DNA from: Faecalimonas sp.
GTDB taxonomy: Bacteria > Bacillota > Clostridia > Lachnospirales > Lachnospiraceae
Reading direction: 5' to 3'
DNA length: 64,000 nucleotides
Assembly: GCA_045121495.1 (NCBI GenBank)
Contig: JBGVGF010000030.1
Location: 17,914 to 81,913, forward strand
Positions within the stretch are counted from its first letter, which is position 1; every line of letters starts with the position of its first letter. A program made the position numbers and the translations under genes. This document shows, piece after piece, positions 30,319-46,782 of this stretch. The notes beneath the pieces are model-generated. The model was not told the origin of the DNA. It was given only the letters and a program-made list of their open reading frames with translations, and did no database searches.

Positions 30319-30416
30319 AGAAAAATAATTGATTTCTGAAAAGTCATTGATTATAATACAATTTATTAATTCTACAAACATATGAAATTAAGCAAATGAT
30401 AACAGGAGGAGATATC

Positions 30417-31400
30417 ATGGATTCAAACAAAAGACCGGATACAATGGAACGTATTACAACACCTGAACTTGCAGATGCTTTTATCGCAGAACAAGTTGCA
30501 GCAGTTAGAGAACAAGTTGGAGATAAAAAAGTGTTATTAGCTCTTTCAGGCGGTGTAGACAGCTCTGTAGTAGCAGCATTATTAATTAAAGCAATTGGCA
30601 AACAATTAGTTTGTGTACATGTTAACCATGGTTTAATGCGTAAAGGCGAAAGTGAACAAGTTATCGAAGTATTTGAAAAAGGCTTAGATGCAAACTTAAT
30701 TTATGTAGATGCAACAGACAGATTCTTAGATTTATTAGCAGGTGTTGCAGAACCTGAAAAGAAACGTAAAATTATCGGAGAAGAATTTGTTCGTGTATTT
30801 GAAGAAGAATCTGACAAATTAGAAGGTATCTCTTTCTTAGCACAAGGAACAATTTATCCAGATATTCTTGAAAGTGATGGAGTAAAGGCTCATCACAATG
30901 TTGGCGGACTTCCTGAAGATTTCAAATTTGAAGGTTTAGTAGAACCAGTGAAATTATTATTCAAAGATGAAGTTCGTGTAGTTGGTAGAGCACTTGGTTT
31001 ACCAGCATCCATGGTTGATCGTCAGCCATTCCCAGGTCCAGGACTTGGTGTAAGATGTTTAGGTGCAATCACAAGAGATCGTTTACATGCACTTAGAGAA
31101 GCAGATGCTATCTTAAGAGAAGAATTCGACATTGCTGGCTTAACAGACAAAGTATGGCAATTCTTTACAGTGGTACCAGATTTTACATCAACAGGTGTGA
31201 AAGATGGAAAACGTCTTGATTACTGGCCAGTAATCATCCGTGCCGTAAACACAGTGGATGCTATGGCTTGTACAGTACCAGAAATCGATTGGGCAGTGCT
31301 TCAAAAGATCACAAACCGTATCTTAAACGAAGTAGATGGAGTATGCCGTGTATGCTACGACATGAGTCCAAAGCCAATCGCTACAATTGAGTGGGAATAA
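30417..31400 (+). CDS. guaA: GMP synthase, ATP-pyrophosphatase and C-terminal domains only (no GATase domain)
   Basis: SGGVDSSV, QGTIYPD, HHNVGG, RQPFPGPGLGVR, KPIATIEWE; 327 aa; AGGAGG RBS. Confidence 0.9.
   Translation: MDSNKRPDTMERITTPELADAFIAEQVAAVREQVGDKKVLLALSGGVDSSVVAALLIKAIGKQLVCVHVNHGLMRKGESEQVIEVFEKGLDANLIYVDATDRFLDLLAGVAEPEKKRKIIGEEFVRVFEEESDKLEGISFLAQGTIYPDILESDGVKAHHNVGGLPEDFKFEGLVEPVKLLFKDEVRVVGRALGLPASMVDRQPFPGPGLGVRCLGAITRDRLHALREADAILREEFDIAGLTDKVWQFFTVVPDFTSTGVKDGKRLDYWPVIIRAVNTVDAMACTVPEIDWAVLQKITNRILNEVDGVCRVCYDMSPKPIATIEWE
31235..31253 (+). repeat. 19-bp direct repeat inside guaA
   Basis: CATCCGTGCCGTAAACACA identical to 41153-41171. Confidence 0.9.
31359..31400 (+). 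repeat. Left att direct repeat (42 bp, guaA 3' end)
   Basis: GACATGAGTCCAAAGCCAATCGCTACAATTGAGTGGGAATAA identical to 41277-41318. Confidence 0.95.
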
Positions 31401-31538
31401 AAAAATTGGGGAAAAGCCTTATTTTATAAGGATTAAGAGCCTTTTGAGAGAAAAAAAGAAGTGGCTATGATTTGTTTTTTAGTTATTTAGAAAGCAATCG
31501 TAGCCACTTATTTTTTTTATTTAGAAAGGAGCTTTGAT

Positions 31539-32513
31539 ATGACTAAAGAGCCAACAAGAGAAGATGTTTTAAAAGAGATTAAAAGAAGAAAAAGAAAAGA
31601 TTTTGGGAAATATGGGGATAAGAATATAAGTTATAAAAGTTTGCTTGATCTATATGTTAGAAGATGTAAAGTGAGAAACTTGTCAGAAGCAACAATTCAG
31701 GGATATATGAATGCTAGTAGATATTTCATGGATTTTGCGGGGTATGATTTAATGTGTATTGATATAGATCAGGATTTAATAAATGAATATTATCTGTATT
31801 TACAAAATTTTTACAAACCACAGACTATAAATAGTTATGTGTTCAAAGTTTGTCCAATTGTAAAATTTGGAATCGAAGAAGGATACATAAAGGATGATAT
31901 TATTTTTACTCATGTAGTAGAACAAAAACAAGTTAAAGAAATTTATACAAAAGAAGAATTAGAGAAACTTCTAGTTAGACCTCAAAATGGAACGTTTGGG
32001 GAAATGAGAGCATGGACTGTTATTAATACGCTAATATCGACTGGGATAAGAGCAGGAGAGCTTAGAGCATTAAAAATAAAAGATGTGAAAATAGATGAAA
32101 GATATATTGTTTTGAATCAGACAAAGAACAGAGAACCAAGAATACTTCCTATGCCAACTACATTACAAAAGGTATTGTTGGAGTGGCTAGAAATAAGAAA
32201 TGGAGCGAGTGAAGATTATCTTTTCTGTAATATTTATGGAGAAAAATTAGAAAGATCAGTTTTACAAAGTTGCGTAAAAAAATATTCTTTGAAACGTGGA
32301 GTAAAAAAATATGGATTACATCTATATCGCCATACGTTCATAACTTTATCTGTTAAGTCGGGAATGTCGCCAGTTATGTTAAAGCGAATTACTGGTCATA
32401 AAAGCATGAAAATGCTTGAGCATTATTATCAGCATAATCCAACTGATTTAGTGGATATAGTAGATCAATACAATCCGTTGGAGAAATTCAGTCCAAGAGT
32501 AAGGAAATTTTAA
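31539..32513 (+). CDS. Tyrosine recombinase/integrase
   Basis: TGIRAGEL (R), TK, HLYRH (HxxR), GH and HY catalytic residues; AGGAG RBS. Confidence 0.93.
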   Translation: MTKEPTREDVLKEIKRRKRKDFGKYGDKNISYKSLLDLYVRRCKVRNLSEATIQGYMNASRYFMDFAGYDLMCIDIDQDLINEYYLYLQNFYKPQTINSYVFKVCPIVKFGIEEGYIKDDIIFTHVVEQKQVKEIYTKEELEKLLVRPQNGTFGEMRAWTVINTLISTGIRAGELRALKIKDVKIDERYIVLNQTKNREPRILPMPTTLQKVLLEWLEIRNGASEDYLFCNIYGEKLERSVLQSCVKKYSLKRGVKKYGLHLYRHTFITLSVKSGMSPVMLKRITGHKSMKMLEHYYQHNPTDLVDIVDQYNPLEKFSPRVRKF

Positions 32514-32516
32514 ATT

Positions 32517-32771
32517 ATGGGAAATAAAAATATGATAACAGTTGATGCAGATGAAATCTTTGATATTATGTGTGATTTTACGGACGTAGAACACGCTATG
32601 CTTAATTTAATAATAGTATGTAATGTTCTGTCAGAGCATTATAATGGAACTGAATATAACGAGCTTTATGCGTTTGTAAGCCTATTAACCAGTCAGATGG
32701 ATATGATACGAAAGGATTTTAGACGTGTCATAAATAGAGTGGATGAATTTTTGTTAAAGAATAAAGCATAA
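32517..32771 (+). CDS. Hypothetical protein (84 aa), co-transcribed with integrase
   Basis: Starts 3 nt after integrase stop; followed by a terminator. Confidence 0.6.
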   Translation: MGNKNMITVDADEIFDIMCDFTDVEHAMLNLIIVCNVLSEHYNGTEYNELYAFVSLLTSQMDMIRKDFRRVINRVDEFLLKNKA

Positions 32772-32774
32772 TAA

Positions 32775-32850
32775 TAACATCTTTTTTACATCTTTTAGTC
32801 CAGAAGCAAGCAAGAATAAAGCAAGTGTTTAACATCTTTATAACATCTTT
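32775..32850 (+). repeat. Two tandem pairs of TAACATCTTT (11-bp period)
   Basis: Copies at 32775, 32786 (TTACATCTTT), 32830, 32841; inverted pair at 40944 and 40955. Confidence 0.85.
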
Positions 32851-32916
32851 GAAACTGCGGGAAGCAGGCTTTAAAGCGATTGGTATTCTGCTGCCCGATC
32901 GGTGATTTTAATATTG

Positions 32917-32948
32917 ACGCAAGTCTATTCGTAGGCTTGCGTTTTTTT
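32917..32948 (+). terminator. Terminator of integrase operon
   Basis: ACGCAAGTCTA-TTCG-TAGGCTTGCGT plus T run. Confidence 0.8.
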
Positions 32949-32968
32949 GTTATAAAATCATACCAGTT

Positions 32969-33063
32969 CCATTAAAACGACTGGTTTTGCAATTGTGCAT
33001 TATATAATAAATACATAAAGAACAGGGAACACAAACCTGAAACAAATAGAAAGAATGAGGTAA
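32969..33063 (+). repeat. Repeated promoter/leader module, copy 1 (copy 2 partial at 33351-33405, copy 3 at 33599-33672)
   Basis: CCATTAAAACGACTG box plus TATATAATAAATACATAAAGAACAGGGAAYACAAACCTGAAA, repeated at offset 630. Confidence 0.88.
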
Positions 33064-33068
33064 GTAAA

Positions 33069-33350
33069 ATGAAAAAGACAAGAAATAGTAGAAAAGGAAA
33101 AAATATTTTTGGAGACAAATGTAGAGAAAAAATTTTAAAGCTTAATAAAGAAACAGCAATGGATCAGTATATAGAAATGATGAAAGATCTTTTGGTTAAT
33201 GGAAAAAACAGTAGTATCGAATATACAATTGACAGCAGTTGTTTCACAAGAGAAGAAGAGGAAGCTTTTTTTCAGAGTGTAGAGGGTATTAATTCGTTGT
33301 TTGCGAGAATGATGAATCGTAATTATACAGAATATACTTGTAAATATTAG
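33069..33350 (+). CDS. Hypothetical protein (93 aa)
   Basis: GAGGT RBS within the repeated leader. Confidence 0.65.
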   Translation: MKKTRNSRKGKNIFGDKCREKILKLNKETAMDQYIEMMKDLLVNGKNSSIEYTIDSSCFTREEEEAFFQSVEGINSLFARMMNRNYTEYTCKY

Positions 33351-33412
33351 TAAATACATAAAGAACAGAAAATATAAATCAGAAACAAATAGAAAGAATG
33401 AGGTAATTAAAA

Positions 33413-33595
33413 ATGAAAAAGATTTATTCCAAAGAAGCAATTAATCGTATGGCTGAAACCCTTTGTATGGATATTGAAGATCACGGTTGGCTGTGTGAGG
33501 ACGGGCATTGGCTGACAAACGAAGAATTTAAGGCATGGACAGATAAAGAAATTGTTGAAGCCTATGAGTTGGCTTATCCAGTGTTTGTTGGATAA
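33413..33595 (+). CDS. Hypothetical acidic protein (60 aa)
   Basis: Same GAATGAGGTAA RBS module as the upstream ORF. Confidence 0.65.
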   Translation: MKKIYSKEAINRMAETLCMDIEDHGWLCEDGHWLTNEEFKAWTDKEIVEAYELAYPVFVG

Positions 33596-33709
33596 GTGCC
33601 ATTAAAACGACTGATTAATAAAAACACTATTATATAATAAATACATAAAGAACAGGGAATACAAACCTGAAAGAAAAATAAAAATTTAATTTAAAAGGAG
33701 ATTAAAATT

Positions 33710-34186
33710 ATGACACTTAATTATGAAGCAAAGGCAATTGAAATGACAAAAACAGAAGCAAAAGAAGCAGGAAAACCAAATACAACAACATACAATAAAC
33801 TTATTGAACTGCGCACAGCATTTCCTACATTCGAAATCATTATAAAGAAAACAACTAGAAAAAAAAGCACATTCAAAGGTCTTGATTATGATTATATGGA
33901 AAGATATATGGTATCAAAAAAGAGTAGCCTTATCGAAGAATTCTATACAATGCGTGGTTATGTAGATGGAGTAAAAAATGATTTTGTAGAAAGCGCATCT
34001 TTTGGAGAAATAAAAACTTGGTTTTTGTTAAATTTCCCAGAAATCGAAGAATATAATAGCAAAGTTGAAAAATTAAGAGAAGAAAATAAAAGAAAAGTAG
34101 AAGCCAATAGAGAAAAGATGGCAGATGAGAAAAGACAAGAAAAAAAGAATGCTTATAAAGAAATGATTGCTGAACTTGCGAATTAA
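33710..34186 (+). CDS. Hypothetical protein (158 aa), paralogue of 34245-34691
   Basis: AAGGAG RBS; shared motifs FPTF, FKGLDYDYM, IKTWFLLNFPE. Confidence 0.8.
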   Translation: MTLNYEAKAIEMTKTEAKEAGKPNTTTYNKLIELRTAFPTFEIIIKKTTRKKSTFKGLDYDYMERYMVSKKSSLIEEFYTMRGYVDGVKNDFVESASFGEIKTWFLLNFPEIEEYNSKVEKLREENKRKVEANREKMADEKRQEKKNAYKEMIAELAN

Positions 34187-34244
34187 AAATTAGTAGTCCA
34201 GTAGAAAAAATAAAAGTATATCAAAAAGAAAGAGGTAAAAAATT

Positions 34245-34691
34245 ATGAAAAACACATTAAAAATTGATTTAAAAAAAAGAGTTATTATTATGGATAGAAC
34301 ATTCGCAAAGAATGTAGAAAATACAAATAGTGAAGAATACGCACATTTACAGCAGGTGCGCAAAGATTATCCAACATTTGCAGTTGAGAAGAAACAGATT
34401 AAGCGCAATGCAAACAAAGAAAGTTATAAAGGACTTACTTATGATTATATGAGAACTTACATCTTTACTCACGAACCAAAAGAAACAAAAAAAGATGTAT
34501 TAGAGGAAATGGAAGAAATGATTTTAATTTCCAAGTGTCATTCAAACGCAAAACGTTACCCAGTAATCAAGAATTGGTTTCTTGAAAAATATCCAGAAGT
34601 TAAAGAGTTTGGTATGAAAAAACCAGAAGAAAAGAAAGTTGTTGCGGAAAGCGGTGAAACAAATGAAGGAACACTTAAAAAAGTAGCATAA
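34245..34691 (+). CDS. Hypothetical protein (148 aa), paralogue of 33710-34186
   Basis: GAGGT RBS; YPTF, YKGLTYDYM, IKNWFLEKYPE. Confidence 0.8.
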   Translation: MKNTLKIDLKKRVIIMDRTFAKNVENTNSEEYAHLQQVRKDYPTFAVEKKQIKRNANKESYKGLTYDYMRTYIFTHEPKETKKDVLEEMEEMILISKCHSNAKRYPVIKNWFLEKYPEVKEFGMKKPEEKKVVAESGETNEGTLKKVA

Positions 34692-34763
34692 TTTTAAGTT
34701 GAACATTTAACAATTCTATAAATTATATTTGGTGTTAATACAATGACTTAAAACGGAAAGGAA

Positions 34764-35423
34764 ATGTTATATATGTTAGAAGTAAAGAAGTATTCGAAGC
34801 CTGAGATGACTAAAATATTTGGAACTAAAAATATGCAAGGTTTAGAAAGAAAATTAAAACGTTATGGTGTTATATTTGACAGAAAAGGTAGAGGTGAAAA
34901 AGCCATCTTTACTATAAAAGAAATAACCAATCCACTTAGAGTTTATCTTATCACAGAACTGGGTTTTAATGGGCAACATGATTATATCAAAGTGCGCAAT
35001 TTCTTATATTACTTCTTTAATGATGAAGAATTTATGGCAATGCCTGATGAAGTAAAAGAAGCTAGAATGAAGAATGATGGCAATGGTGTGTCAAGACAAG
35101 CAATAGCCGGTTATATTGCCAAATTAGATGGAAAAAATTTAATTGAAAGAAATACCAATAATTATATATATTACTTTGCATACAAGCAAAATCAACGAAT
35201 TGTAGATCGTGATGAATATATACAGGCGTGGCATGAGTATTGGGCTGATATTGATATGGGATTATATTCAGGAACAGCGATTAATAAAATGCGAAATAAA
35301 TATGGTGGAGTAGCAAGAAAGCAAGCAATACCTGAAATTAATGGTATTTACAAAACGGAAGTAGAATATTTAAATACTCTTATAGTAGAAAGTATAGAGA
35401 AAGAAATCGAGGAGCAAAATTAA
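34764..35423 (+). CDS. Hypothetical protein (219 aa) with probable winged-HTH segment
   Basis: VSRQAIAGYIAKLDGKNLI resembles an HTH recognition helix; flanked by related palindromes. Confidence 0.7.
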   Translation: MLYMLEVKKYSKPEMTKIFGTKNMQGLERKLKRYGVIFDRKGRGEKAIFTIKEITNPLRVYLITELGFNGQHDYIKVRNFLYYFFNDEEFMAMPDEVKEARMKNDGNGVSRQAIAGYIAKLDGKNLIERNTNNYIYYFAYKQNQRIVDRDEYIQAWHEYWADIDMGLYSGTAINKMRNKYGGVARKQAIPEINGIYKTEVEYLNTLIVESIEKEIEEQN

Positions 35424-35479
35424 GTCATTGATTTAACAGTAAGAGTATATATTATTACTGTTAAATCAATGACTTAATT
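35418..35479. repeat. Perfect 25-bp inverted repeat with 12-nt spacer
   Basis: AATTAAGTCATTGATTTAACAGTAA / TTACTGTTAAATCAATGACTTAATT; degenerate copy at about 34692-34752. Confidence 0.93.
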
Positions 35480-35545
35480 GGGCGTATTCAGTTAAAAGAG
35501 CAATCTTCTAAAGCAATATAATAAAAGAGATAAGGAGAAATAATT

Positions 35546-35728
35546 ATGAATTACCTTGATTTTATGAATCGTAATGTTCCAGATTATTACGATACAATGT
35601 ATATGGATGGTTATACACCAGAGCAAATTATAATGGCTCATAGAAAGATGATGCGTGAAATGCTATTAGAAGATGAAGAAGAACAGGAAAATGATTTTTC
35701 TATAGTTAGTCAGGTGAATGTAAAATGA
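35546..35728 (+). CDS. Hypothetical acidic protein (60 aa)
   Basis: AAGGAG RBS. Confidence 0.65.
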   Translation: MNYLDFMNRNVPDYYDTMYMDGYTPEQIIMAHRKMMREMLLEDEEEQENDFSIVSQVNVK

Positions 35729-36327
35729 GATTTTCCAGTCATGATAAGCGAAACAGAAAAAAGAAAAAGCGCAAAAGCCAGTCTGTTATTGAAAAAGAAA
35801 TACTGGCGATTATGTAGAAGAGTATGAAAACGGCTTTGGATCTTGCACTCGATGACATTATGAAAGAATGGAAATATTGAACGATACCGTTATCTTTCGT
35901 CTGACGGGAGAAATAAAATTTTGAGAAGTGAGTAGCTTTGCTACTCACAATCTCAAAAAATTTTATTTCTCTGTGTCGTCAAAGACGACAATAGAATTGA
36001 ATAATAATAACATAAGCGGAAGCTTGCTTTACCGATCTCAAAAATGAGAACAAAGAATCGGTGGAACGAGCTTCCGCTTTTTCTTGTTTTATAGACTTTT
36101 GCTTCTGGTGTCATCGGTCGCAAAGATCGTCTCCTGAAATCAAAATCACTCTTCGTGGGAGTGAAGCCCACGCATTTCCAACAACTACCTTTAAAAATTT
36201 TATTTTCCTGAAATATAGGCGGGTGTCAGCGAAAGGGTGATTATAATTTCTTGAACAAAAATAGACTATTTTTGCCTGTTTTTAGCCTTTTGGAACTTGT
36301 TATAAAGTGTTCAGGAAAACAGATGTT

Positions 36328-36552
36328 TTATTGGACACCCTCCACAGGATCTTCCACATATTCTACAAGATCACCTGGCTGGCAATTAAGTAGAGCGCAG
36401 ATCGTGTCAATGGTTTTCCAAGAGACTAATTCTCCGTGGCGCAATTGCTGTAAATAAGATTGTCCGATCAGCTTTTCTTCTCTGATCTTTGTAGAAGTGT
36501 ATCCTGCTTTTTTTAGTTCTGCCATAATATCAAGTTTATATCGTATAGCCAT
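36328..36552 (-). CDS. XRE/Cro-family HTH regulator (74 aa)
   Basis: MAIRYKLDIM...VSWKTIDTICALLNCQPGDLVEY; AGGAGG RBS. Confidence 0.9.
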   Translation of the reverse strand: MAIRYKLDIMAELKKAGYTSTKIREEKLIGQSYLQQLRHGELVSWKTIDTICALLNCQPGDLVEYVEDPVEGVQ

Positions 36553-36590
36553 AATCATCCTCCTTTTGATAATTTTATCATAACATATAA

Positions 36591-36683
36591 TAGCACTAGA
36601 ATATAGTGTAAATAATACACAAAATAAGCACTGGAAATTAGTGTATTTTACCAATAGACTGCACTAGATATTGGTGCTATAAT
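36591..36683. promoter_or_regulatory. Divergent promoter region with three GCACT-N-AGTGY operators
   Basis: Palindromes at 36591-36610, 36626-36645, 36659-36679; rightward TAGACT-17-TATAAT (36655-36683). Confidence 0.8.
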
Positions 36684-36866
36684 AAAGACAGTTAAGAGAG
36701 GAACACAAGTCAAGGCGGACGGGATTACCGAAAGGGAAAGCAAGAACGCAAGGTAAGAGTGAGACAGGATAAGAGAGAGTGAGATTGCAAAAGGTGCATA
36801 GATGTTTAAAGCCACTCAACACTTGAAAGCCTTAACAATAAAACAAACCAAAAGGAGAAATGAACA

Positions 36867-37145
36867 ATGACAAAAGCAGAAATGATCGCAAAAATCGAGG
36901 CACTTAACGAATGGGAAACACTTATGGAAGAAGCAAAGGCAGAGGCAGACGCAATTAGAGACAGCCTCAAAGCTGAAATGATGGAGAGAGAAACAGAAGA
37001 ACTGATCGCAGGATCTTACATCATCAGATGGACTTCCGTTCTTTCAAATAGATTTGACACTACTGGATTTAAGAAAATGTATGGAGATCTCTACAAAGCA
37101 TTTACAAAGCAGAGTGCGAGCAGACGATTCTCAATCTCCTGCTAA
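36867..37145 (+). CDS. Hypothetical protein (92 aa), coiled-coil N-terminus
   Basis: AAGGAG RBS; long leader from strong promoter. Confidence 0.8.
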   Translation: MTKAEMIAKIEALNEWETLMEEAKAEADAIRDSLKAEMMERETEELIAGSYIIRWTSVLSNRFDTTGFKKMYGDLYKAFTKQSASRRFSISC

Positions 37146-37202
37146 TAGATAACAATCTCCACAGACAACACAAAGCCTGTGGAGATAGAAAGGATAGACG
37201 CT

Positions 37203-37790
37203 ATGAATTACGGATATGCAAGGTGTAGCACCAACGAAACAAAGCAAGATATTAACAGACAAGTGCGGGAACTGAAAAGCGCAGGCGCAGAAGAAATTTT
37301 TCTTGAATACGAACATGGAGACAGCAAGATCAAAGACCAGCAGCAAGAAATGTTTGCGCAGGCAGCCGCAGGAGATACAATTATTACATTAGAAGTTCCA
37401 CGACTTGCCAGAAGCACAAAACAGTTATGTGAGATTATCGATATTATCAGAGAAAAGCACCTGCGTCTTGTGATCCTTGGAAGTATTACTCTTGATTGCC
37501 GAGATGGACAAGCAGACCCAATGAGTGAAGCATTTTTACAAATGGCAGGAGTTTTCAGTCAGTTAGAACTTTCAATGATTCGATCAAGAGTGCGTTCGGG
37601 GATGGCAAACGCCAAAGCTAAGGGGAAAAGGATCGGGCGTCCGCATGTATCTGTGGAGGATCTGCCTAATACATTCCTTAAACACTATCCTGCTTACAAA
37701 ACAGGAAAACTTAATCTTTCAGAATTTGCCAGAGTATGTGATTTGAGCAGAACGACAGTTTATAAATATATTGAACTTTTGGGAAAATAA
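37203..37790 (+). CDS. Serine recombinase (resolvase/invertase family)
   Basis: YGYARCST, RLARS, C-terminal HTH SRTTVYKY. Confidence 0.92.
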   Translation: MNYGYARCSTNETKQDINRQVRELKSAGAEEIFLEYEHGDSKIKDQQQEMFAQAAAGDTIITLEVPRLARSTKQLCEIIDIIREKHLRLVILGSITLDCRDGQADPMSEAFLQMAGVFSQLELSMIRSRVRSGMANAKAKGKRIGRPHVSVEDLPNTFLKHYPAYKTGKLNLSEFARVCDLSRTTVYKYIELLGK

Positions 37791-37814
37791 AAGGTGCAGA
37801 ATTCTGCACCTTTT
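37789..37814. terminator. Perfect 26-bp palindrome, probable bidirectional terminator
   Basis: AAAAGGTGCAGAATTCTGCACCTTTT between convergent stops. Confidence 0.75.
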
Positions 37815-38364
37815 ATTTTTTAATTCTTACCGTTGGATTATAAGTATTCCTTCCTTTATCGATAGTAATTTCATCACCTTCATCTGTAGTGATATTAATA
37901 TCATATTCATAGCCCCACATCTCATCAGGAATATCAATTTTAAGAATCGAGCCCTTGACTTTTTCACAAGTAACACCATATTCAAAAATATTATTAATAT
38001 CATACCCACTCCCTAGGTTCGCAAGTTCTATATCGTCTGTCCTTTCAAAATATTCACCTATCCCATTATCGTATGTATATGTAAGTCGAATGACACTATC
38101 CGACGTAACATAACAGTTTTCCTTTAATGCAATCCTTGTAGTTGTATAACGGTCTGTTTCTTCCCCAAAAGAATCTTCTACTGTCACTTCAATTTCTTTT
38201 AATTCAATATAGTCTTTCCAGTTTTCAGTGGTTAATTCAATAAACTCTGCATCTGCTAATAATTCTTTTTGTGAGATAGTTTGTTTTTTCGTGTTATCCA
38301 AACTACAACCACAAACAGAAATTATCATAAAACATAAAATCATAAGTAAAAATAATTTTCTCAA
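37813..38364 (-). CDS. Putative lipoprotein, paralogue 3
   Basis: TTG start after AGGAGA; signal peptide with CGC lipobox; ELTTENWKDYIE motif. Confidence 0.75.
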   Translation of the reverse strand: MRKLFLLMILCFMIISVCGCSLDNTKKQTISQKELLADAEFIELTTENWKDYIELKEIEVTVEDSFGEETDRYTTTRIALKENCYVTSDSVIRLTYTYDNGIGEYFERTDDIELANLGSGYDINNIFEYGVTCEKVKGSILKIDIPDEMWGYEYDINITTDEGDEITIDKGRNTYNPTVRIKK

Positions 38365-38377
38365 GTTATTCTCCTTT

Positions 38378-38968
38378 TTAATTAAAAAATGATTCATAAG
38401 TAGCTGTTGAATCATCTATTGTTATTGTATCATTTGCTTCCCCTCTCTTGATTAGGACATCAATACTTTTACTTCCATCCTCATTGATGTTCCATCTTTC
38501 ATCAGGAATATTCGTTTTAAGAATTGTGCCTTTTATTTTTTCACAAGAAACACCGTATTCAAAAATAGCAAGCAGATCCCATCTTCTTCCTTCATAAATA
38601 GGTCCATCATAAAAAGAATAATCGTGTGTCATTTCATAATATTCGCCTATTCCATTATCATATGTAAATGTGATTCGAATGGCATTATCTTCCGAAATAT
38701 AACAGTTTTTCTTTAATTCCATTCTTGTTGTTGTGTGGCGACCTGTTTCTTCGCCAAAAGCATCTTTTTCTATCACTTCGACTTCTTTAATTTCAATGTA
38801 ATCTTTCCAGTTTTCGGTTGTTAATTCAATATATTCTGCATCTGCTAACAATTCTTCTTTTGAGATAGTTCCTTTTTTCGTATTATTATTTACGGAGCCA
38901 GTTGTATTGCAAGAACAAGTGGAGAAGCAGATGAGCAGAGAAAGCATAAAAATTAGTGTTTTTTTCAA
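38378..38968 (-). CDS. Putative lipoprotein, paralogue 2
   Basis: TTG start after AGGAGG; CSC lipobox; ELTTENWKDYIE motif. Confidence 0.8.
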   Translation of the reverse strand: MKKTLIFMLSLLICFSTCSCNTTGSVNNNTKKGTISKEELLADAEYIELTTENWKDYIEIKEVEVIEKDAFGEETGRHTTTRMELKKNCYISEDNAIRITFTYDNGIGEYYEMTHDYSFYDGPIYEGRRWDLLAIFEYGVSCEKIKGTILKTNIPDERWNINEDGSKSIDVLIKRGEANDTITIDDSTATYESFFN

Positions 38969-38992
38969 AATGAGTTCCTCCTAAATCCTTTT

Positions 38993-39634
38993 TTAATGCA
39001 TATATTCAGCTTCCCAGGTTGATGAACCAAAACCGCATATGATTTCTTTTATATTAGCATTGACAAGATACGGTGTCATGCTGTTTTCAGCAGCTATATA
39101 GAAACCACTTTCGTAAATTTCAGCTATTTCACCAGGTAATGGAGAATAGATTACTTCATTAGGGAGATTTACTACATAAACATTGCCTTTGATTCTGGAA
39201 CATTCATAATCTTTGATATTAAAATTTGATGGAAGATAATCATAAATTTTATCACCTTTAGGATCTAGGGAGTAGATAATGGTCTCTCCTGTTGTTTTGT
39301 TCTTTAATTCGATAACGACATCTTCATAACAATAATAGTGCTCTATATTAGCGCCCAAGACCCTTCGCACAATTTCTTCGGATGAAATGACTTCGCCAAA
39401 TTCATCTTTTTCTACAATTTTTTCGGTGTATTTAATGACATCAATATAATTATTCCAGTTTTCAGGGTTGAGTTTTACTAATTCGAGGCATTCATTAAAT
39501 CTATTGCGGTTGATACATTTTATCCCATCTCTTTCGATAACTAGGGTGTCAGCTATTGTTTGAGAAGAATCACCACAAGAACAAAGTGACAAACACATAA
39601 TTAAAGTAAATGTAATTATAATAAGTTTTTTCAT
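38993..39634 (-). CDS. Putative lipoprotein, paralogue 1
   Basis: LSLCSCG lipobox; KLNPENWNNYID...EKDEFGE motif. Confidence 0.8.
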   Translation of the reverse strand: MKKLIIITFTLIMCLSLCSCGDSSQTIADTLVIERDGIKCINRNRFNECLELVKLNPENWNNYIDVIKYTEKIVEKDEFGEVISSEEIVRRVLGANIEHYYCYEDVVIELKNKTTGETIIYSLDPKGDKIYDYLPSNFNIKDYECSRIKGNVYVVNLPNEVIYSPLPGEIAEIYESGFYIAAENSMTPYLVNANIKEIICGFGSSTWEAEYMH

Positions 39635-39768
39635 AATAATTCCTTTCTTCTAAAGTAGTCATTTGATTATAGAATATTTAAAAGAACAAGTCAAATTTGA
39701 GCGATAATAAAATAAAACAGCTTTTTCTGTTATAATGAGTAAAAGGTCAAGAGAGAAGGGAATCGATT

Positions 39769-40923
39769 ATGGAAAAGGTTTATAAAAAATTTCACAGAAA
39801 AAAGGATCAGCATTTAAACGGAACTATTGAAGCTAAACATGGAAAGCAGACAAACCAGAAGCTAAAAGCTTATGTGGTTCTCCAATATCTATTAAAGTAT
39901 TCTGATGAAAATCATGTGGCGACCGCATTTGATCTGATAGAGTTCCTGAATGAAATGGGGATTAGTGCCGAGCGCAGATCCATTTACAAAGATATAGAAG
40001 AAATCAACAAAGTTGCGTTGATGATGGAAGAAGAATGTTCTGTAGAAGAAGCAGAGGAAATGCTTGAAGATGATGAAGATGGAGAACTAAGGTTAGTTAT
40101 CTATGATAAAAGCAAAAAAGGATTTTATGTGCGTCAGCGCCACTTTGATCTTAATGATATTCGACTTCTGGCTGAATGTGTGTATTCTGCTAAATTCGTG
40201 GCAGAGGGACAGGCAAAACGTCTTGTAGATGTTGTTTGCGATTTTGTTAGTGAGTATCAGGCAGACAAGATCAGGCACAATGCTTTTCTTACAGATAGAG
40301 TAAAGACCAATAATAAAAGTGTATTAAATAATATTTCACTCATTAACGAAGCTATGAGTAAGGAAAGTGATGGACAGAAACACATTCCTGAAAAGATCAC
40401 TTTTAAATATTTAAAATATTCTCTCGATAGTATGGGGAAACAAGTGGAGCGCAGGCAGGGTGCAAAATACTGCGTTAGTCCTTATCAGTTATTGATTAAC
40501 GATGGGAACTACTATCTTCTGGCTTATGATGATTACGCAAAAGATATGAGAACTTATCGCGTGGATCGAATGAAAGGTGTTTCTTTCACAGGAGTTCCAA
40601 GAGAGGGAGAAGAAGTTTTTAGAGAAATCGATTTGAAGACTTATACACAAAGAGTGTTTTCTATGTTCGGTGGAGAAGAAAAACGTGTGGTTTTGCGCTT
40701 TATCAATCCGCTTCTGGATACAGTTGTAGATCGCTTTGGAACAAAAGATGTTTATTATAGTAAAGTTGATGATACACATTTTAGTGTATCTGCGCACGTA
40801 GAGATCAGCGATCAGTTCTTCGGTTGGCTTCTGGGATTTGGCAGAAAAGTTAAAGTGCTTGCGCCAGATGATGTTGTAGAACAGTTTAAAAAGTATATGG
40901 AACGTATTATAGAAATGTATTAA
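39769..40923 (+). CDS. WYL-domain transcriptional regulator
   Basis: N-terminal wHTH (ERRSIYKDIEEIN), VSPYQL...NYYLLAY...RTYRVDRM WYL motif, FFGWLLGFG C-terminal domain. Confidence 0.9.
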   Translation: MEKVYKKFHRKKDQHLNGTIEAKHGKQTNQKLKAYVVLQYLLKYSDENHVATAFDLIEFLNEMGISAERRSIYKDIEEINKVALMMEEECSVEEAEEMLEDDEDGELRLVIYDKSKKGFYVRQRHFDLNDIRLLAECVYSAKFVAEGQAKRLVDVVCDFVSEYQADKIRHNAFLTDRVKTNNKSVLNNISLINEAMSKESDGQKHIPEKITFKYLKYSLDSMGKQVERRQGAKYCVSPYQLLINDGNYYLLAYDDYAKDMRTYRVDRMKGVSFTGVPREGEEVFREIDLKTYTQRVFSMFGGEEKRVVLRFINPLLDTVVDRFGTKDVYYSKVDDTHFSVSAHVEISDQFFGWLLGFGRKVKVLAPDDVVEQFKKYMERIIEMY

Positions 40924-40943
40924 AGTGATATGAAACATGAATA

Positions 40944-40964
40944 AAAGATGTTAAAAAGATGTTA
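40944..40964 (-). repeat. Tandem pair AAAGATGTTA (inverted copies of TAACATCTTT)
   Basis: Copies at 40944-40953 and 40955-40964. Confidence 0.8.
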
Positions 40965-41152
40965 GAAGAAGAGTCATATTTCAGTGGGTTGGAAATTTGC
41001 CTTTTAGAACAAAGTATGTTATTTTGGAATAGGAAGAGTAGAAAGCCAACTAAATAACGAAAAAACATGTTAGCTACGTAGTGAAAAAAGGACACTTGTT
41101 CAACAAAAAGCGTGATTGGAGTAAAAAACAGTCCGCGATAGCGAAGCTATCG

Positions 41153-41318
41153 CATCCGTGCCGTAAACACAAAAGACGCTATGTCTGCAACAATCGAAGA
41201 AATTCCATACGAAATCCTTCACCATATCACATACAGAATCACACACGAAGTTCCTGGCATCAACAGAGTTCTTATGGACATGAGTCCAAAGCCAATCGCT
41301 ACAATTGAGTGGGAATAA
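41153..41318 (+). pseudogene. Second, divergent guaA 3' fragment (54 codons, in frame, no start) containing the right att repeat
   Basis: IRAVNTKDAMSATIEEIPYEILHHITYRITHEVPGINRVLMDMSPKPIATIEWE*, colinear with 31235-31400. Confidence 0.92.
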
Positions 41319-41502
41319 TCACGTTTGTCACGAAGATTAGAGATAATTTACATGCTCCACAGAGAAATTCTCTGGCGGGGCATGATCTGATTAAAAAATT
41401 ATTTTTAGAAAATATAGAACAAAGAATTAGAATGTTGCAGCAGGTCATCAAAGAAAAAGAAGCAGCATTAATTCAGAAGAAAAATAAGAGGAGGCGTCAT
41501 AT

Positions 41503-41712
41503 ATGGGAATATTTGATTTCAATGGAGATGAGAAAAAATCTGTGGTTGAACAATGGATAGAATATAATATTTATAAGGAATGCACGACAGATGATGAGTC
41601 TGATGATGACGCCTATCTTTATGATGGTGAAGAGAAAGATCATAGTTGGAGAGATTTCTGCGAGGATGGATCTGACTATGGATTATCTCCTGAAGATTAT
41701 GATAGTGAATAG
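41503..41712 (+). CDS. Small highly acidic hypothetical protein (69 aa)
   Basis: GAGGAGG RBS; D/E-rich. Confidence 0.55.
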   Translation: MGIFDFNGDEKKSVVEQWIEYNIYKECTTDDESDDDAYLYDGEEKDHSWRDFCEDGSDYGLSPEDYDSE

Positions 41713-42119
41713 GTATATGCAAGTTTAAAATTATTAAACAGGTGCAAAAATCAGATTTAGTGCATGAAATCTGTCAAGCATTGCATACTATCTCTGAGGT
41801 GACCAGAATAATGAAAGATAAACAAGAAAAGAAAGATAACGAGAAATTTAATAGCATTACTCAAAAAGTAAAACCACAAAATCAAAACCAGCATCACAAT
41901 GTTAAAAAAGAAGGTGTAGATGCAAAAAGAAGGCAAGTATAATAGGCAGGTAAAAAGACATTCCAATCGGATGTCTTTTTTATTATGGTCAATTCGGAGA
42001 GAAGTTGTAAAGGACAACCACAAATTATCATAAAGTCTTTTTTTCGACTGAAAAAATGGAATATACTATACTGACTTCAACTATAGGATAAATAACATAA
42101 AAGGAGAGAGGGAAAAGTT

Positions 42120-42650
42120 ATGCAATTTCCTAAGGGAACATTTTTAATGAGGGCAAGAGAACCGGTTGCTTCAATATATTTCCAATTATCTGGGAAGTCA
42201 ATTGTAATTCCTCTGCATTTTGTGAAACAATCGATTCAAGTGAGATATTAGTGATTCCACCAGCTTTCACAAGAATGATGGAATGCGATTTCCAACTAAC
42301 AAAAAAGTTTTGAAAGCACAAGAAAAGAAAATCTGGAGACTTGGCATCAACTGAAAAATACAACGAGTTGTATTCAGTTAGAAAGGAAGCTGGTCGCAAT
42401 GCTCTGGAAATTAGCACGAGATTTTGGATTTGAGACAGAGGAAGTGATTGAAATTGACATTAATCTATCAATTACATTTTTAGCAGATATGCTTGGAACT
42501 TCAAAAGAAACTACTTCAAGAATCTGCTCATTTCTTGTAGAAAACGGATTAATAAAGATAAATAAAAAACGAATTACAATTGTAAATTTACAAAAAATGT
42601 CATTGTTTTATAGACCAAATTTCTTGCATGATATACTTAGCCTTTTTTGA
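42120..42650 (+). pseudogene. Crp/Fnr-family regulator pseudogene
   Basis: Fragments YFQLSGKS / CETIDSSEILVIP / KIWRLG / QLKNTTS...LWKLARDFG / LGTSKETTSR lie in different frames with stops. Confidence 0.8.
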
Positions 42651-43381
42651 ATAAAATGCAGCTAATCCAACTGCAAATTTTAACTCTCTGAAAGATGTTT
42701 CTATCCCCATCACTTTCCATACAGTTCGTAAAGTTATGTCGTAATGCTTGTTTTCGTAATCTATATAATCCAAAGGAGTACTTTGAGCAATAAACTTATA
42801 TATTCTTGGATTTTGTTTGATTTCCTTTGTTTGCGATCGAGTTATTTTTAGCGGAACAGTAACATCATATTCATTCTTTTTTCTCCCTGGCTCAATTACG
42901 GCATCAATATATCTTCGAGGACAGAGATTATACATGGCATTGAGATGTAATTGATTAATATCCTTCATTGTTTATACCATGAGGAAAATAAGTATCTGTG
43001 TCTTCAGGATTATATGAAATATTAAAATCACTTCCATCACATGCAACAATGTGTAATCCATTAAACAGATGTGTCATCTCATAACTCTGATTAAACTCTT
43101 GAAAAAGAAATTCAAATGCATCTGGCAAAATCTTGCGCTCTGCGTTGGTTGAATGAAGAGAGCTACTTTCTGTCGTAAGAATAAATTTAATCACCTCACT
43201 AAAACTCCATTTCATCAATTAGTGAAAAAAGAATCTGTTTTACTTTAATAGAAAAATTCAAAGTATAATCCTCCTTTTTCTGAATATGTCAATATCCTTT
43301 TCGAATTTATTACAAAAAAAGAGCAGAACATGTATTTCATATGCTCTGCCCTGAGGGCCATTCCTTATCTAAATGACATTG
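42615..43381 (-). mobile_element. IS4-family insertion sequence remnant
   Basis: Fragments ACDGSD, NQLHLNAMY, IETSFRELK, QEIW in broken frames; end-like CAATGTCATTTAGATAAG at 43381-43364; RBS and TTG at 43261. Confidence 0.75.
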
Positions 43382-43403
43382 GTTTTTTACAGCCCCTTTT
43401 CAT

Positions 43404-45005
43404 TTATCCTAGAATTCTTTTTAAATCCGCTTCTGGTGTACTAATAGGTGCAATATTATAGTTTTCGACAAGCAATTGTAATACATTTGGTGAAATAAAT
43501 GCCGGAAGCGATGGTCCGAGTAAAATATTCTTGATACCCAAATGTAAAAGTGTCAATAAAATGCAAACTGCTTTTTGTTCATACCATGAAAGAACCATAG
43601 AGAGTGGCAGATCGTTTACGCCACATTCAAAAGCATCTGCTAAGGCCACTGCAACTTTAATTGCACTGTATGCATCATTACATTGCCCCATATCCATGAT
43701 ACGAGGGAAACCGCCGATTGTTCCAAGATCTAAATCGTTAAAACGATATTTACCACAAGCAAGAGTTAAGATAATGCTGTCAGAAGGTGCCTGTTTTACA
43801 AACTCTGTATAATAGTTTCGGCCAGGTTTCGCACCGTCACATCCACCAACGAGGAAGAAATGTTTGATAGCGCCAGTTTTCACCGTTTCGACAACTTGAT
43901 CAGCAACAGATAATACAGCATTGTGACCAAAACCAGTGATCACTTGATTGCCTCCATTCATGCCGATAAATACTTTGTCTTCTTTATAACCACCTAATTC
44001 GAGTGCCTTTTCAATGACAGGAGTGAAATCCTTATCCTCACCAATGTGTCGTATTTCTGGATAAGATACTACTTCGGTTGTAAATATGCGGTCAGCATAG
44101 CTTACTTTTGGAGGCATTAGACAGTTCGTAGTAAACAAAACCGGGGCTGGAATATTAGCAAATTCTTTTTGTTGATTTTGCCATGCGCTTCCATAATTTC
44201 CTTTCAGATGAGCATATTTTTTCAGCACTGGATAAGCGTGCGCAGGGAGCATCTCTCCATGGGTGTAGATGTTGATACCTTTGTCTTTTGTTTGCTCCAA
44301 AAGTTGTTTCAAATCATATAGATCATGTCCTGTAATGACGATAAATGGGCCTTTTTCAACATTCATTGATACTTCTGTCGGAGCCGGATTTCCAAAAGTT
44401 TCGGTATTTGCTTTGTCAAGCAAAGCCATGCATTTCAGATTCATTTCACCTACTTCCATTACAAGTGGAAGTAATTCTTCTGTTTTCCAATCATCGATAC
44501 CAATTGCAAACAGTGCTTTATGGAAAAACTTATTGATTTCAGTATCCGTATATCCTAGAACAGCCGCATGGTATGCATAAGCTGCCATACCTCGAATGCC
44601 GAAAAGAATGAGTGACTTCAGAGAACGAATATCTTCAGAAGCATTCCATAGATTTTGCAAATTGTAATCGGCATTTCTCTTACAAGGAGAAGCGCATTGA
44701 AAACAACGAGGGATTATGCGTTTCTTTTCTGCACGCACTCGTTCGATGAGTTCGGAAATAGCATTATTGTCAAAGCTTACATTTGTAAGAGTAGCAAATA
44801 ATCCTTCGATGATGATTCTGTCTGTGGAATCAGATACTCTGCTAGGACTTCCATCAGCAGCACGAACAAGCCCAATTAAGTAACCTGTAAGTTTATCCTG
44901 CAACATGGCAGTATCTTCCTTTTTCCCACAGGCTCCTGCAGCACCTGTGCAGCCAGCACAGCCTGCAGTCTGTTCACACTGAAAACAAAACATTTTTTTA
45001 TCCAT
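43404..45005 (-). CDS. hcp: Hydroxylamine reductase (hybrid-cluster protein)
   Basis: MFCFQCEQT, TGHD, THGEM, GGCDG, LACGKYRFN, GQCND, WYEQKA. Confidence 0.95.
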   Translation of the reverse strand: MDKKMFCFQCEQTAGCAGCTGAAGACGKKEDTAMLQDKLTGYLIGLVRAADGSPSRVSDSTDRIIIEGLFATLTNVSFDNNAISELIERVRAEKKRIIPRCFQCASPCKRNADYNLQNLWNASEDIRSLKSLILFGIRGMAAYAYHAAVLGYTDTEINKFFHKALFAIGIDDWKTEELLPLVMEVGEMNLKCMALLDKANTETFGNPAPTEVSMNVEKGPFIVITGHDLYDLKQLLEQTKDKGINIYTHGEMLPAHAYPVLKKYAHLKGNYGSAWQNQQKEFANIPAPVLFTTNCLMPPKVSYADRIFTTEVVSYPEIRHIGEDKDFTPVIEKALELGGYKEDKVFIGMNGGNQVITGFGHNAVLSVADQVVETVKTGAIKHFFLVGGCDGAKPGRNYYTEFVKQAPSDSIILTLACGKYRFNDLDLGTIGGFPRIMDMGQCNDAYSAIKVAVALADAFECGVNDLPLSMVLSWYEQKAVCILLTLLHLGIKNILLGPSLPAFISPNVLQLLVENYNIAPISTPEADLKRILG

Positions 45006-45025
45006 TTAAAGATCCTCCAATATAT

Positions 45026-45718
45026 TTAGTTTAAAATATCACCTTCTGTAGAAATTGTCACAACATTCCAAGGAATAGATTTTCCACTTGCTTCAAGTGC
45101 TCTTTCTACAGCGTATTCAATACCGCCGCAGCAAGGTACTTCCATTCGAACCACTGTGATATCTTTGATGTTATTTCTTGCAATGATTTCTGAAATTTTT
45201 TCAGCATAATCTACCGCATCCAGTTTTGGACATCCAATTAAAGTAATACGGTTGCGCATAAAATCATTGTGGAAATTTCCGTATGAATAGGCAGTACAAT
45301 CGGCTGCGATTAATAATTCTGCTTCGTCAAAATAAGGAGCAGCGACAGGAACAAGCTTGATTTGTACTGGCCAATTTGACAATTGACTTCCAACTGTTGT
45401 CGATGCATTTACTGGTGTATCGTTGTGAGAAATTGTTTTCGATTTTGTACCAGGACAACTGCAAGAAGTTTTCTGTGCTTTTAGTAATTTTGCCTTTTCT
45501 ACAGCGGCTTCATCGTATGCCGGGGCTTCTCGCATTTCAAATGAAATCGCATTTGTTGGACAGGCCGGTAAACAATCTCCCAGACCGTCGCAATAATTTT
45601 CGCGAGTCAATTTTGCCTTGCCATCAATCATATCAATTGCACCTTCATGACAGGCAGATGCACAGGCACCGCATCCATTGCAGAGTTCTTCGTTTATTTT
45701 TATGATTTTTCTTAACAT
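45026..45718 (-). CDS. 4Fe-4S ferredoxin-like protein (hcp-associated)
   Basis: CNGCGACASAC, CDGLGDCLPACP, NWPVQIKL, GCPKLD, MEVPCC. Confidence 0.88.
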   Translation of the reverse strand: MLRKIIKINEELCNGCGACASACHEGAIDMIDGKAKLTRENYCDGLGDCLPACPTNAISFEMREAPAYDEAAVEKAKLLKAQKTSCSCPGTKSKTISHNDTPVNASTTVGSQLSNWPVQIKLVPVAAPYFDEAELLIAADCTAYSYGNFHNDFMRNRITLIGCPKLDAVDYAEKISEIIARNNIKDITVVRMEVPCCGGIEYAVERALEASGKSIPWNVVTISTEGDILN

Positions 45719-45792
45719 ATACATTTCCTCCCAAATCATCATGTTAGTTTTGTGTTTATGAGGATATTCTAGTATAATAAAAAGAAAAAATA

Positions 45793-45808
45793 TGTTGAAA
45801 TTTCAACA
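45793..45808. promoter_or_regulatory. Perfect palindrome TGTTGAAATTTCAACA, probable HcpR-type site
   Basis: Between divergent ferredoxin-hcp and Crp/Fnr genes. Confidence 0.6.
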
Positions 45809-45821
45809 AACGGAGAATTTT

Positions 45822-46481
45822 ATGAAAAAATATTTGGCGATTATAAAAAAATGTGCACTCTTTGAAAATGTTGAAGATGAAAACTTGATAGCAATATTGG
45901 GATGTCTTGGAGCGAAGATCACGCAATATAAAAAAAATGAAACAATCATGAAGGAAGGAACACCAGCAAGACAGATAGGGATTGTTCTCACAGGAGAAGT
46001 GCAGATTGTAAGAAATGATTATTACGGAAATCGGAGTATTGTTACGAATGTAGAGCCGGCACAGATATTTGGAGAATCTTTCGCATGTGCAGGAGTCAAG
46101 GAAATGCCGGTTGATGTGATAGCCACCACAGATACGGATGTGATGATGATAGATTGTTATAGAATTACGAATTCATGTTGCAAGGCATGCGTTTTCCATA
46201 GTCAAATTATTTTTAATCTTATGAAAGTAGTTGCTGTAAAGAATCTTGTCTTCCATCAAAAGATAGAGATTATTTCAAAACGCACTACAAGAGAGAAACT
46301 TATGACTTATCTGCTTTCCCAGGCAAAGAAGAATGGAAGCAGAAGTTTTTATATTCCATATGACAGGCAGGAACTTGCTGATTATCTGGAAGTAGAAAGA
46401 AGCGGATTGTCGGCGGAAATCAGTAAGATGCGTAAGGAAGGAATCATCGAAAATAAAAAAAATTATTTTCAATTACTGTGA
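45822..46481 (+). CDS. Crp/Fnr-family regulator (HcpR-like)
   Basis: FGESFAC, TTREKLM, RQELADYLEVERSGLSAEISK; divergent from hcp. Confidence 0.88.
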   Translation: MKKYLAIIKKCALFENVEDENLIAILGCLGAKITQYKKNETIMKEGTPARQIGIVLTGEVQIVRNDYYGNRSIVTNVEPAQIFGESFACAGVKEMPVDVIATTDTDVMMIDCYRITNSCCKACVFHSQIIFNLMKVVAVKNLVFHQKIEIISKRTTREKLMTYLLSQAKKNGSRSFYIPYDRQELADYLEVERSGLSAEISKMRKEGIIENKKNYFQLL

Positions 46482-46604
46482 TGAATATTTTCAAACTAAA
46501 AACGGATTAAAGTTTTCACGATTCTCTTAAGAAAATCTAAAATCAGTTGACAAAATCTGGAAGAAATTTATAATTACATGCAAATACTAATGGAAGGTGA
46601 TTGT

Positions 46605-46733
46605 ATGAAAGAAAAATTTAGATATATATTAACATCGGGATTTGCGAAAGTGGCAGCGTGGGTGATTTTTATTTTTTGTGCAACACTCATGCTGTTTCGA
46701 AAGAACAGACATAAGGAAATAGAGAATAAATAA
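46605..46733 (+). CDS. Small single-TM protein (42 aa, not in ORF track)
   Basis: Own TTGACA-16-TATAAT promoter (46547-46574), GAAGGTG RBS, terminator at 46740-46768. Confidence 0.6.
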   Translation: MKEKFRYILTSGFAKVAAWVIFIFCATLMLFRKNRHKEIENK

Positions 46734-46739
46734 ATTGCG

Positions 46740-46768
46740 AAAGAACTGTTGAAGCAGTTCTTTTTTTG
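46740..46768 (+). terminator. Intrinsic terminator
   Basis: AAAGAACTG / CAGTTCTTT plus T run. Confidence 0.8.
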
Positions 46769-46782
46769 TTAAAACAAAATTG

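Follow-up and report, generated by a model that had tools for sequence, protein, structure and literature searches.

The end of a guaA-like gene in a Faecalimonas genome raises two questions: why should an integrative element carry, at its far junction, a second and strongly diverged copy of the last codons of its target, and which of the two endings belongs to the host? The locus lies in a stretch of 64,000 nucleotides of contig JBGVGF010000030.1, to which we refer as the window, where an integrative element measuring 9,918 bp between its repeats is inserted at the 3' end of a short paralogue of guaA. The evidence on the junctions consists of assembled contigs throughout. Judging from the sequence comparisons that follow, the working gene has kept its own, vertically inherited ending, the copy at the far junction is of foreign origin and linked to the element, and near-identical elements carry different alleles of the gene end.

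An ungapped alignment of 31235-31400 with 41153-41318 (166 bp each, offset 9918) confirms the repeat, which a preliminary description of this DNA had correctly presented as a gap-free and stop-free copy of the end of guaA, and it reproduces both of the peptides quoted there. Bases 1-19 and 125-166 of the repeat are identical in the two copies, and the middle between them matches at 58 of 105 positions (55%). In the host gene, the 19-bp block (codons IRAVNT) occupies 31235-31253, the 35 codons of the native middle, here called A (VDAMACTVPE...RVCY), occupy 31254-31358, and the 42-bp block, which forms the left attachment junction (attL) and ends with the stop codon, occupies 31359-31400; identity between the junctions stops exactly at this TAA. 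On the element side, a 19-bp block at 41153-41171 opens the fragment, the foreign middle, here called B (KDAMSATIEE...RVLM), follows at 41172-41276, and the 42-bp block of the right attachment junction (attR) at 41277-41318 leads into host flank, all of these features lying on the forward strand. Each of the two blocks occurs twice in the window, and no occurrence is expected in shuffled sequence. Both copies of the repeat are free of stops in the guaA frame. The copy at 41153 has no start codon and is preceded by an in-frame TAG four codons upstream, so that what had been called a second allele of the GuaA C-terminus is indeed present as an open copy, but not as a free-standing one. Assembly chimerism was considered as the source of the mosaic and rejected, as L061, a Logan contig from an independent assembly, matches 37790-41306 at 100% identity.

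The question of which ending is native can be answered from empty sites. An exact look-up of the short GuaA protein led to five metagenome contigs (L048-L052). In L048, which is 34.8 kb long and 99.8% identical to the window, the element is absent and the gene with its A ending runs directly into the sequence found in the window from 41319 onward; L049-L052 have the same element-free joint. The 166-bp gene end matches the A copy of the window at all 166 positions in L049-L052, as well as in L057, and at 164 of 166 in L048. Furthermore, the A middle is 82% identical to that of the closest species, G007, and 79% identical to that of G012, which has no island at the site, and over the whole gene region the window and G007 are about 78% (BLAST) or 86% (ungapped comparison) identical. 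Because the five empty sites carry A, and because A has diverged from the sister species to the same degree as the remainder of the gene, A is evidently the host's own, vertically inherited ending. Since the empty sites join A to the right flank, the crossover of the present insertion most likely took place to the right of the last A/B difference, within the 42-mer, with the host gene keeping A. The preliminary description had pointed to island-free strains as the way to find the native middle, and the five contigs of the species carry A; its expectation that crossover or excision at the 42-mer leaves the gene unchanged is thereby supported, and its suggestion that the element donated the current C-terminus falls, as the element can have contributed at most the last invariant codons. 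It might be thought that the 166-bp end of L050 had been homogenised by exchange; this was rejected, as the identical tract extends from before 30700 to 41900 and reflects ordinary strain recombination.

The gene that was entered (30396-31400, forward strand) encodes 334 amino acids, or 327 if translation starts at the Met at 30417, as in most database relatives, and it matches the Pfam GMP_synt_C and PP-loop families and PRK00074. The ATP-pyrophosphatase (PP-loop) and C-terminal dimerisation domains are present (TIGR00884 guaA_Cterm, 9e-126; Pfam GMP_synt_C, 5e-32). The Pfam scan revealed no glutamine amidotransferase (GATase) domain, and the NCBIfam model PRK00074 is covered solely at positions 197-512. 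A full-length guaA of 515 amino acids, about 180 residues longer at the N-terminus and with a GATase domain recognised by eye, lies on contig C48 of the same genome and is 54% identical to the short paralogue over their common part. Therefore, the earlier identification of the target as guaA proper, an "essential enzyme", is unfounded: the element sits in a GATase-less paralogue, and the full-length gene is elsewhere in the genome. Across the genus, many species have this short form as a conserved gene in syntenic position.

The stop codon of the short paralogue is a hotspot in its own right. At least three or four unrelated sequence families adjoin it in other species of the genus (loci L005, L007, L008, L009, L010, L013, L017, L018 and L083-L092), one of them common to G007 and G019, one to G020 and G024, and one to G016, G004 and G028; among the occupants are one that resembles an integrative and conjugative element (ICE) and encodes a coupling protein, and one whose integrase is of the Arm-DNA-bind type. 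In several cases, the contig of a species representative ends less than 150 bp from this stop codon. In P0160, a 381-residue GuaA-short protein on a 1.8-kb contig, a stretch of about 54 residues (ITRDRLHAL...YEGWPA) occurs twice in tandem inside the protein, and the duplication ends at the IIRAVNT site; it may be an artefact of assembly or a scar left by recombination of an element that carried more of the gene.

Where does the B middle come from? A second clade of the genus (clade 2) normally has the B peptide at the end of this gene, and at the nucleotide level B matches G022 at 96 of 105 positions and the host gene in L053 at 94 of 105; it is absent from the empty sites. An even closer match (99/105) is the fragment of a related element in L068. 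The blocks on either side have another affinity: the 19-mer of the fragment matches clade-2 genes at 14-16 of 19 positions and the 42-mer at 32-36 of 42 (15/19 and 33/42 in G022), and both are perfect matches to the present host. At the three variable sites of the 19-mer, the present host's bases are found in 0/10, 0/10 and 1/10 clade-2 genes. Moreover, an identical integrase protein is encoded directly behind clade-2 genes in L053, L054 and L055, and therefore the element moves between the clades. These findings show the foreign origin of B and its linkage to the element, and they bear out the earlier proposal that the extra fragment came from a former host.

The 456-kb contig L068, from a clade-2 host, provides a second complete case. 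It contains a related element of 6.9 kb, whose right end matches that of the window at 215 of 229 positions and which has a gene-end fragment at the same junction. Compared with its own host gene, this fragment consists of 24 identical bases, a middle with 87/105 matches, 26 identical bases and a last stretch of 16 with three differences. Its middle is closer to B of the window (99/105) than to its own host gene (87/105), and the gene regions of the window and of L068 are otherwise only about 74% identical. In comparisons with six other species, the distances of the attL middle of L068 agree more closely with those of the upstream gene than is the case for its attR middle. Thus, L068 too seems to have a native working gene end, with the B-like middle as part of the element, the native allele being judged here from distance patterns alone. 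P0143 was tried as a route to empty sites of the L068 host and rejected, as the species to which this protein belongs has a different synteny.

Look-ups of near-identical WYL proteins led to three further right ends, in L081, L082 and L093. The right end of L082 (227/229) passes, at the same base as in the window, into the 19-mer, followed by a perfect A middle (105/105) and a tail that starts with GAT, where all conspecific contigs have GAC. In L081, the right end (again 227/229) is joined to the 19-mer and the first 11 bases of A, where the contig ends. L057, which is from the same sample as L081, starts exactly at 31235 and passes through the A middle into int; such a start is explained if the 19-mer followed by A has two left neighbours, because an assembly graph with k=31 would then break there. 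L081, L082 and L057 are all compatible with either attR or attP, the attachment site of the circular form. L093 comes from the sample that also contains the clade-2 left junction L054; behind the same right end it has a clade-2 19-mer and then a third B allele, which matches B at 48 of 54 positions (89%) over the part covered. One right end is therefore seen with at least three gene-end alleles, and the variety of alleles behind it is thereby shown. The junction expected from a crossover in the 19-mer, right end followed by 19-mer and A middle, thus exists in two public samples; conversion is another possible origin. Nearly all differences among B alleles are synonymous (6/6 against L068, 11/11 against the host gene of L053, 8/9 against G022 and 5/6 against L093), and therefore the middles have presumably been drawn from working genes recently or spend time inside them.

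If the element could pass its middle to the chromosome, genes with exchanged endings should be found. Two chimeras, a clade-1 body with the B ending and a clade-2 body with the A ending, were searched for in 5.8 billion clustered proteins, with the last 100 residues scored, and no full-length protein close to either was found in this set. A census of 260 proteins shows the expected pairing of upstream type and ending in 252, and no chromosomal gene with a clade-1 body and the B ending was found in it or among the clustered proteins. The clear exceptions in the census are two full-length genes and one fragment. P0279 and P0280 (326 amino acids each) combine a clade-2-like upstream part with an A-like ending. 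The fragment, P0161, is a phage tail-like open reading frame (ORF) running in frame into a guaA fragment that begins GAITRDRL and switches from clade-1-like to clade-2-like exactly at IIRAVNT; a prophage using this gene probably has its right junction here. All 13 sampled members of the host's 360-member protein cluster have A-like endings. Exchange from element to chromosome is thus unseen and, if it occurs, rare. In the clade-1 cluster, the 35-codon segment shows an excess of protein diversity (0.175 against 0.084), and the clade-2 cluster shows none; this was rejected as too weak to serve as evidence. The idea that excision at the 19-mer swaps the C-terminal part of the gene finds no support among the 5.8 billion clustered proteins, where no B-ending chromosomal gene was found. 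The broader proposal of a site-specific allele exchange is supported in part: the element-side copy does vary with host alleles, but nothing has been swapped in the present genome.

The gene-end fragment in the right arm is, on this comparison, a trait of a wider family. Integrases 63-73% identical to that of the window also sit behind guaA genes, including a 430-residue form and a full-length guaA of 543 residues, and their elements also end in a guaA fragment. In L074/L075, where the integrase is 66% identical and the adjoining DNA unrelated, the fragment has the same left edge as in the window, CATCCGTGC, and the two copies are identical over 112 bp in mid-stretch and differ near both ends. 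In L070 and L078, the fragments start about 39 bp further upstream than in the window. The 11.5-kb contig L078 has a WYL region that is 92% identical, a block after int that is 98% identical to 32513-34165 of the window, and a different integrase (about 69% at the DNA level), and it ends in a fragment of the canonical full-length guaA type (GDERTYDYAVALRAV...). Modules thus appear to be shuffled between elements that target different guaA genes. Searches with the integrase in genome and metagenome contig sets returned distant relatives only, exact-pattern scans for the right end gave no match in metagenome or viral contig sets, and the species-representative genomes of the genus and family contain no close relative of the integrase, the best being 36% identical.

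How might such a fragment arise? We think it reasonably probable that it is part of the attachment region of the element, that insertion through the 42-mer left the gene intact, and that the fragment has been repeatedly renewed from host gene ends. An element with a Xer-like tyrosine integrase would insert at the last codons of the short guaA paralogue, with the crossover inside the 42-bp block. The 124 bp to the left of the 42-mer at the far junction (the 19-mer and the B middle) would belong to the element and be a piece of the gene of a former clade-2 host, so that the circular form would contain a gene-end piece with the right-arm motifs on one side of it and the core on the other. Sister elements would have acquired the allele of the local host in place of what lay to the right of the corresponding junction, and in the window the flanks of the fragment would already have been converted to the sequence of the present host. 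Material would thus be exchanged repeatedly between host gene ends and the element's copy, presumably in the direction from host to element, and the host gene would normally be left unchanged. Several points weigh against this reading. The fragment is a host/foreign/host mosaic that needs break points at both block boundaries (19-mer/middle and middle/42-mer), so that one crossover at a fixed point cannot account for it, and recombination of the RecA type is unlikely across a middle of 55% identity. The tails at the left junction vary between hosts despite identical integrases, and those at the right junction are host-like too; therefore, the crossover can be assigned to the 42-mer as a whole. 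Finally, synonymous-only divergence would not be expected in an untranslated fragment unless it is often renewed from, or resides in, functional genes.

This last feature would also fit a segment that is periodically inside an expressed gene, as proposed by an alternative that we regard as possible but doubtful, namely that the integrase, or any recombination system, crosses over in either the 19-mer or the 42-mer, and that entry at one and exit at the other swaps the 35-codon middle reciprocally, making the element an allele shuttle. The element-side product that such a two-site exchange should leave (right end, 19-mer, A middle and tail) is what L082 and L081 contain, and the start of L057 exactly at 31235 is as expected for a 19-mer and A with two left contexts; the window, L068 and L082 agree in the two boundaries at which their break points lie, the left edge is common to L074/L075 despite an integrase of 66% identity and unrelated adjoining DNA, and P0161 switches clade exactly at IIRAVNT. 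However, the reciprocal product on the chromosome is found in 0/5 empty sites and 0/13 cluster members and has no representative in the two targeted searches, the 19-mer and the 42-mer have no obvious core sequence in common, the fragments of L070 and L078 show that the 19-mer edge is not universal, and a two-point swap from simple starting states would still not yield the host/foreign/host mosaic. It would be tempting to extend the idea to the whole integrase family, acting at the IIRAVNT block and at the last codons, with elements and chromosomes trading a 35-codon cassette of the dimerisation domain between species, and this we hold to be rather unlikely. In L081, L082, L093 and L068, the sequence on the right side of the junction changes according to host clade, a pattern that displaced host ends would show if the locus followed the classical arrangement of e14 in icd, in which the crossover lies at the left edge of the homology, the element supplies A, and B with its flank is the displaced host end. 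Elements that enter protein-coding genes usually follow this scheme (PMC13626634, and Hill et al. 1989 cited there). Yet the classical arrangement seems improbable here, given that A stands beside the same flank in five island-free conspecific contigs, that two other host backgrounds again have B behind the same right end (L068, 99/105, 94%; L093, 48/54, 89%) when the gene regions of the window and L068 are otherwise about 74% identical, and that the copy beside int matches the local host clade in every case despite identical integrases. We consider it very improbable that the fragment is an inert scar, a one-off and functionless capture of host DNA by aberrant excision that is not exchanged. 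A possible trace of decayed guaA homology that extends about 38 bp to the left of the 19-mer, which would resemble an eroding longer capture, was rejected as suggestive but not significant (131/2000 shuffles score as well), and an inert scar fits poorly with at least three alleles behind one 99%-identical right end, with changes that are synonymous only, with flanks of the fragment that are host-identical in two hosts, and with the retention of the fragment in relatives whose integrases are 66-73% identical.

The two arms of the element frame these junctions. The left arm, from the stop codon of the gene to int (31401-31538, forward strand), contains a palindrome, CCTTATTTTATAAGG, and a 14-bp inverted repeat, GTGGCTATGATT...AATCGTAGCCAC, both read directly from the sequence. 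It is conserved in L053-L060 and L068 except for its first ~18 bp (31401-31418), which show indels and substitutions relative to L053-L055 and L068 (AAAAATTGGGGAAAAGCC vs AATTTGG(A/G)GATAAAAGCC); as these bases differ between elements with 99-100% identity in their integrase genes, the variation clusters at the junction. The non-coding right arm (40924-41152, forward strand) is 227/229 identical in L081 and L082 and 215/229 in L068, shares the motif TAGTGAAAAAAGGACACTTG with L070, and ends in a hairpin, CGATAGC-GAA-GCTATCG (41136-41152; a perfect 7-bp stem with a GAA loop), which abuts the 19-mer and is conserved in L068, L081, L082 and L093. The hairpin may be derived from decayed guaA codons (..SRYEGW..), to which its similarity is weak.

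Between the arms, the integrase gene (31539-32513, forward strand) starts 138 bp past the stop codon of the host gene and encodes a Xer-like tyrosine integrase of 324 amino acids with a SAM-like N-terminal domain (Pfam Phage_integrase, 2.7e-26). The interior that follows (32517-37145) has small ORFs without family matches, an XRE-type helix-turn-helix protein at 36328-36654 on the reverse strand, and a 92-residue protein at 36867-37145. Next come a small serine recombinase of the resolvase/invertase type (37179-37790, forward strand; Pfam Resolvase, 5e-28), three paralogous putative lipoproteins, with a signal peptide and Cys and internal repeats D1, D3, D5 and D6 (37813-39634, reverse strand), and a regulator assigned by family match to the WYL/WCX-domain type (39769-40923, forward strand), DNA versions of which that are 92-93% identical occur in L078-L082 and L093. 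A 30-bp inverted match at the end of the resolvase gene (37784-37813), where the independent contig L061 begins, may be the recombination site of the serine recombinase. No relaxase, coupling-protein, replication or virion families were recognised in the element with Pfam and PHROGs, many of its ORFs belonging to no family at all. Beyond the island, the interval up to the next gene in common with G012 (41319-46776) contains transposase-like ORF fragments (42600-43218) and a set of hybrid-cluster-protein, ferredoxin and Crp/Fnr genes, all of which are present in the conspecific L048 and absent from the same place in G012.

By the marks that its sequence offers, the element would count as a site-specific integrative element: a tyrosine recombinase lies beside the target, direct repeats lie at the junctions, empty sites exist, and insertions occur in different host backgrounds. 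In Escherichia coli, e14 is inserted in icd with an icdC fragment, and its excision changes the last codons of the gene (PMC13626634, citing Hill et al. 1989). Like e14 or phage 21 in icd, the element of the window carries an integrase, sits in the 3' end of a housekeeping-type gene and has, at its far junction, a diverged and stop-free duplicate of the last ~55 codons, so that excision could in principle alter the ending of the gene. In e14, however, the working ending comes from the element and the displaced host end forms the far copy, whereas here the working ending is native and the far copy foreign and element-linked; moreover, the window copy has two perfect blocks around a middle of 55% identity and differs between near-identical elements. 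A second parallel is found in streptococci and other Firmicutes, where the 3' end of guaA is the target of integrative and mobilizable elements (IMEs) and ICEs with tyrosine integrases (PMC5357655, PMC4701971). These share with our element the last codons of a GMP synthase gene as the target, an adjacent integrase and flanking direct repeats. The element of the window differs from them in that its target is a GATase-less paralogue (in its relatives, full-length guaA is a target too), that no relaxase or oriT was recognised in it, and that its repeat is a mosaic of 166 bp, not a short core. A further comparison is with recombinase-mediated cassette exchange, the two-site exchange that is used in genetic engineering with Cre or Flp. 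Crossovers at two flanking sites would swap a segment without net insertion, and the mosaic and the variety of A and B hint at such a process; unlike with Cre or Flp, no reciprocal product is seen here, and the likeness is one of analogy only.

Duplicates of gene ends at island borders are usually read as a displaced host end or as a short core repeat. In the present case, the duplicate is foreign and element-linked and seems to be renewed from host genes, so that an attachment region can record the former hosts of an element, and annotation can go astray if it follows the rule by which the far copy is taken for the old end of the host gene. To our knowledge, protein mosaicism by such element-borne exchange of gene ends is so far known mainly from e14 in icd. 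If the exchange were reciprocal, parts of a conserved enzyme domain would travel between species on such elements, and if the two-site action held true, it would amount to a natural recombinase-mediated cassette exchange through which a metabolic enzyme's C-terminal alleles spread within the genus. Overall, the arrangement described here is a variant of the known e14/icd type of gene-end duplication.

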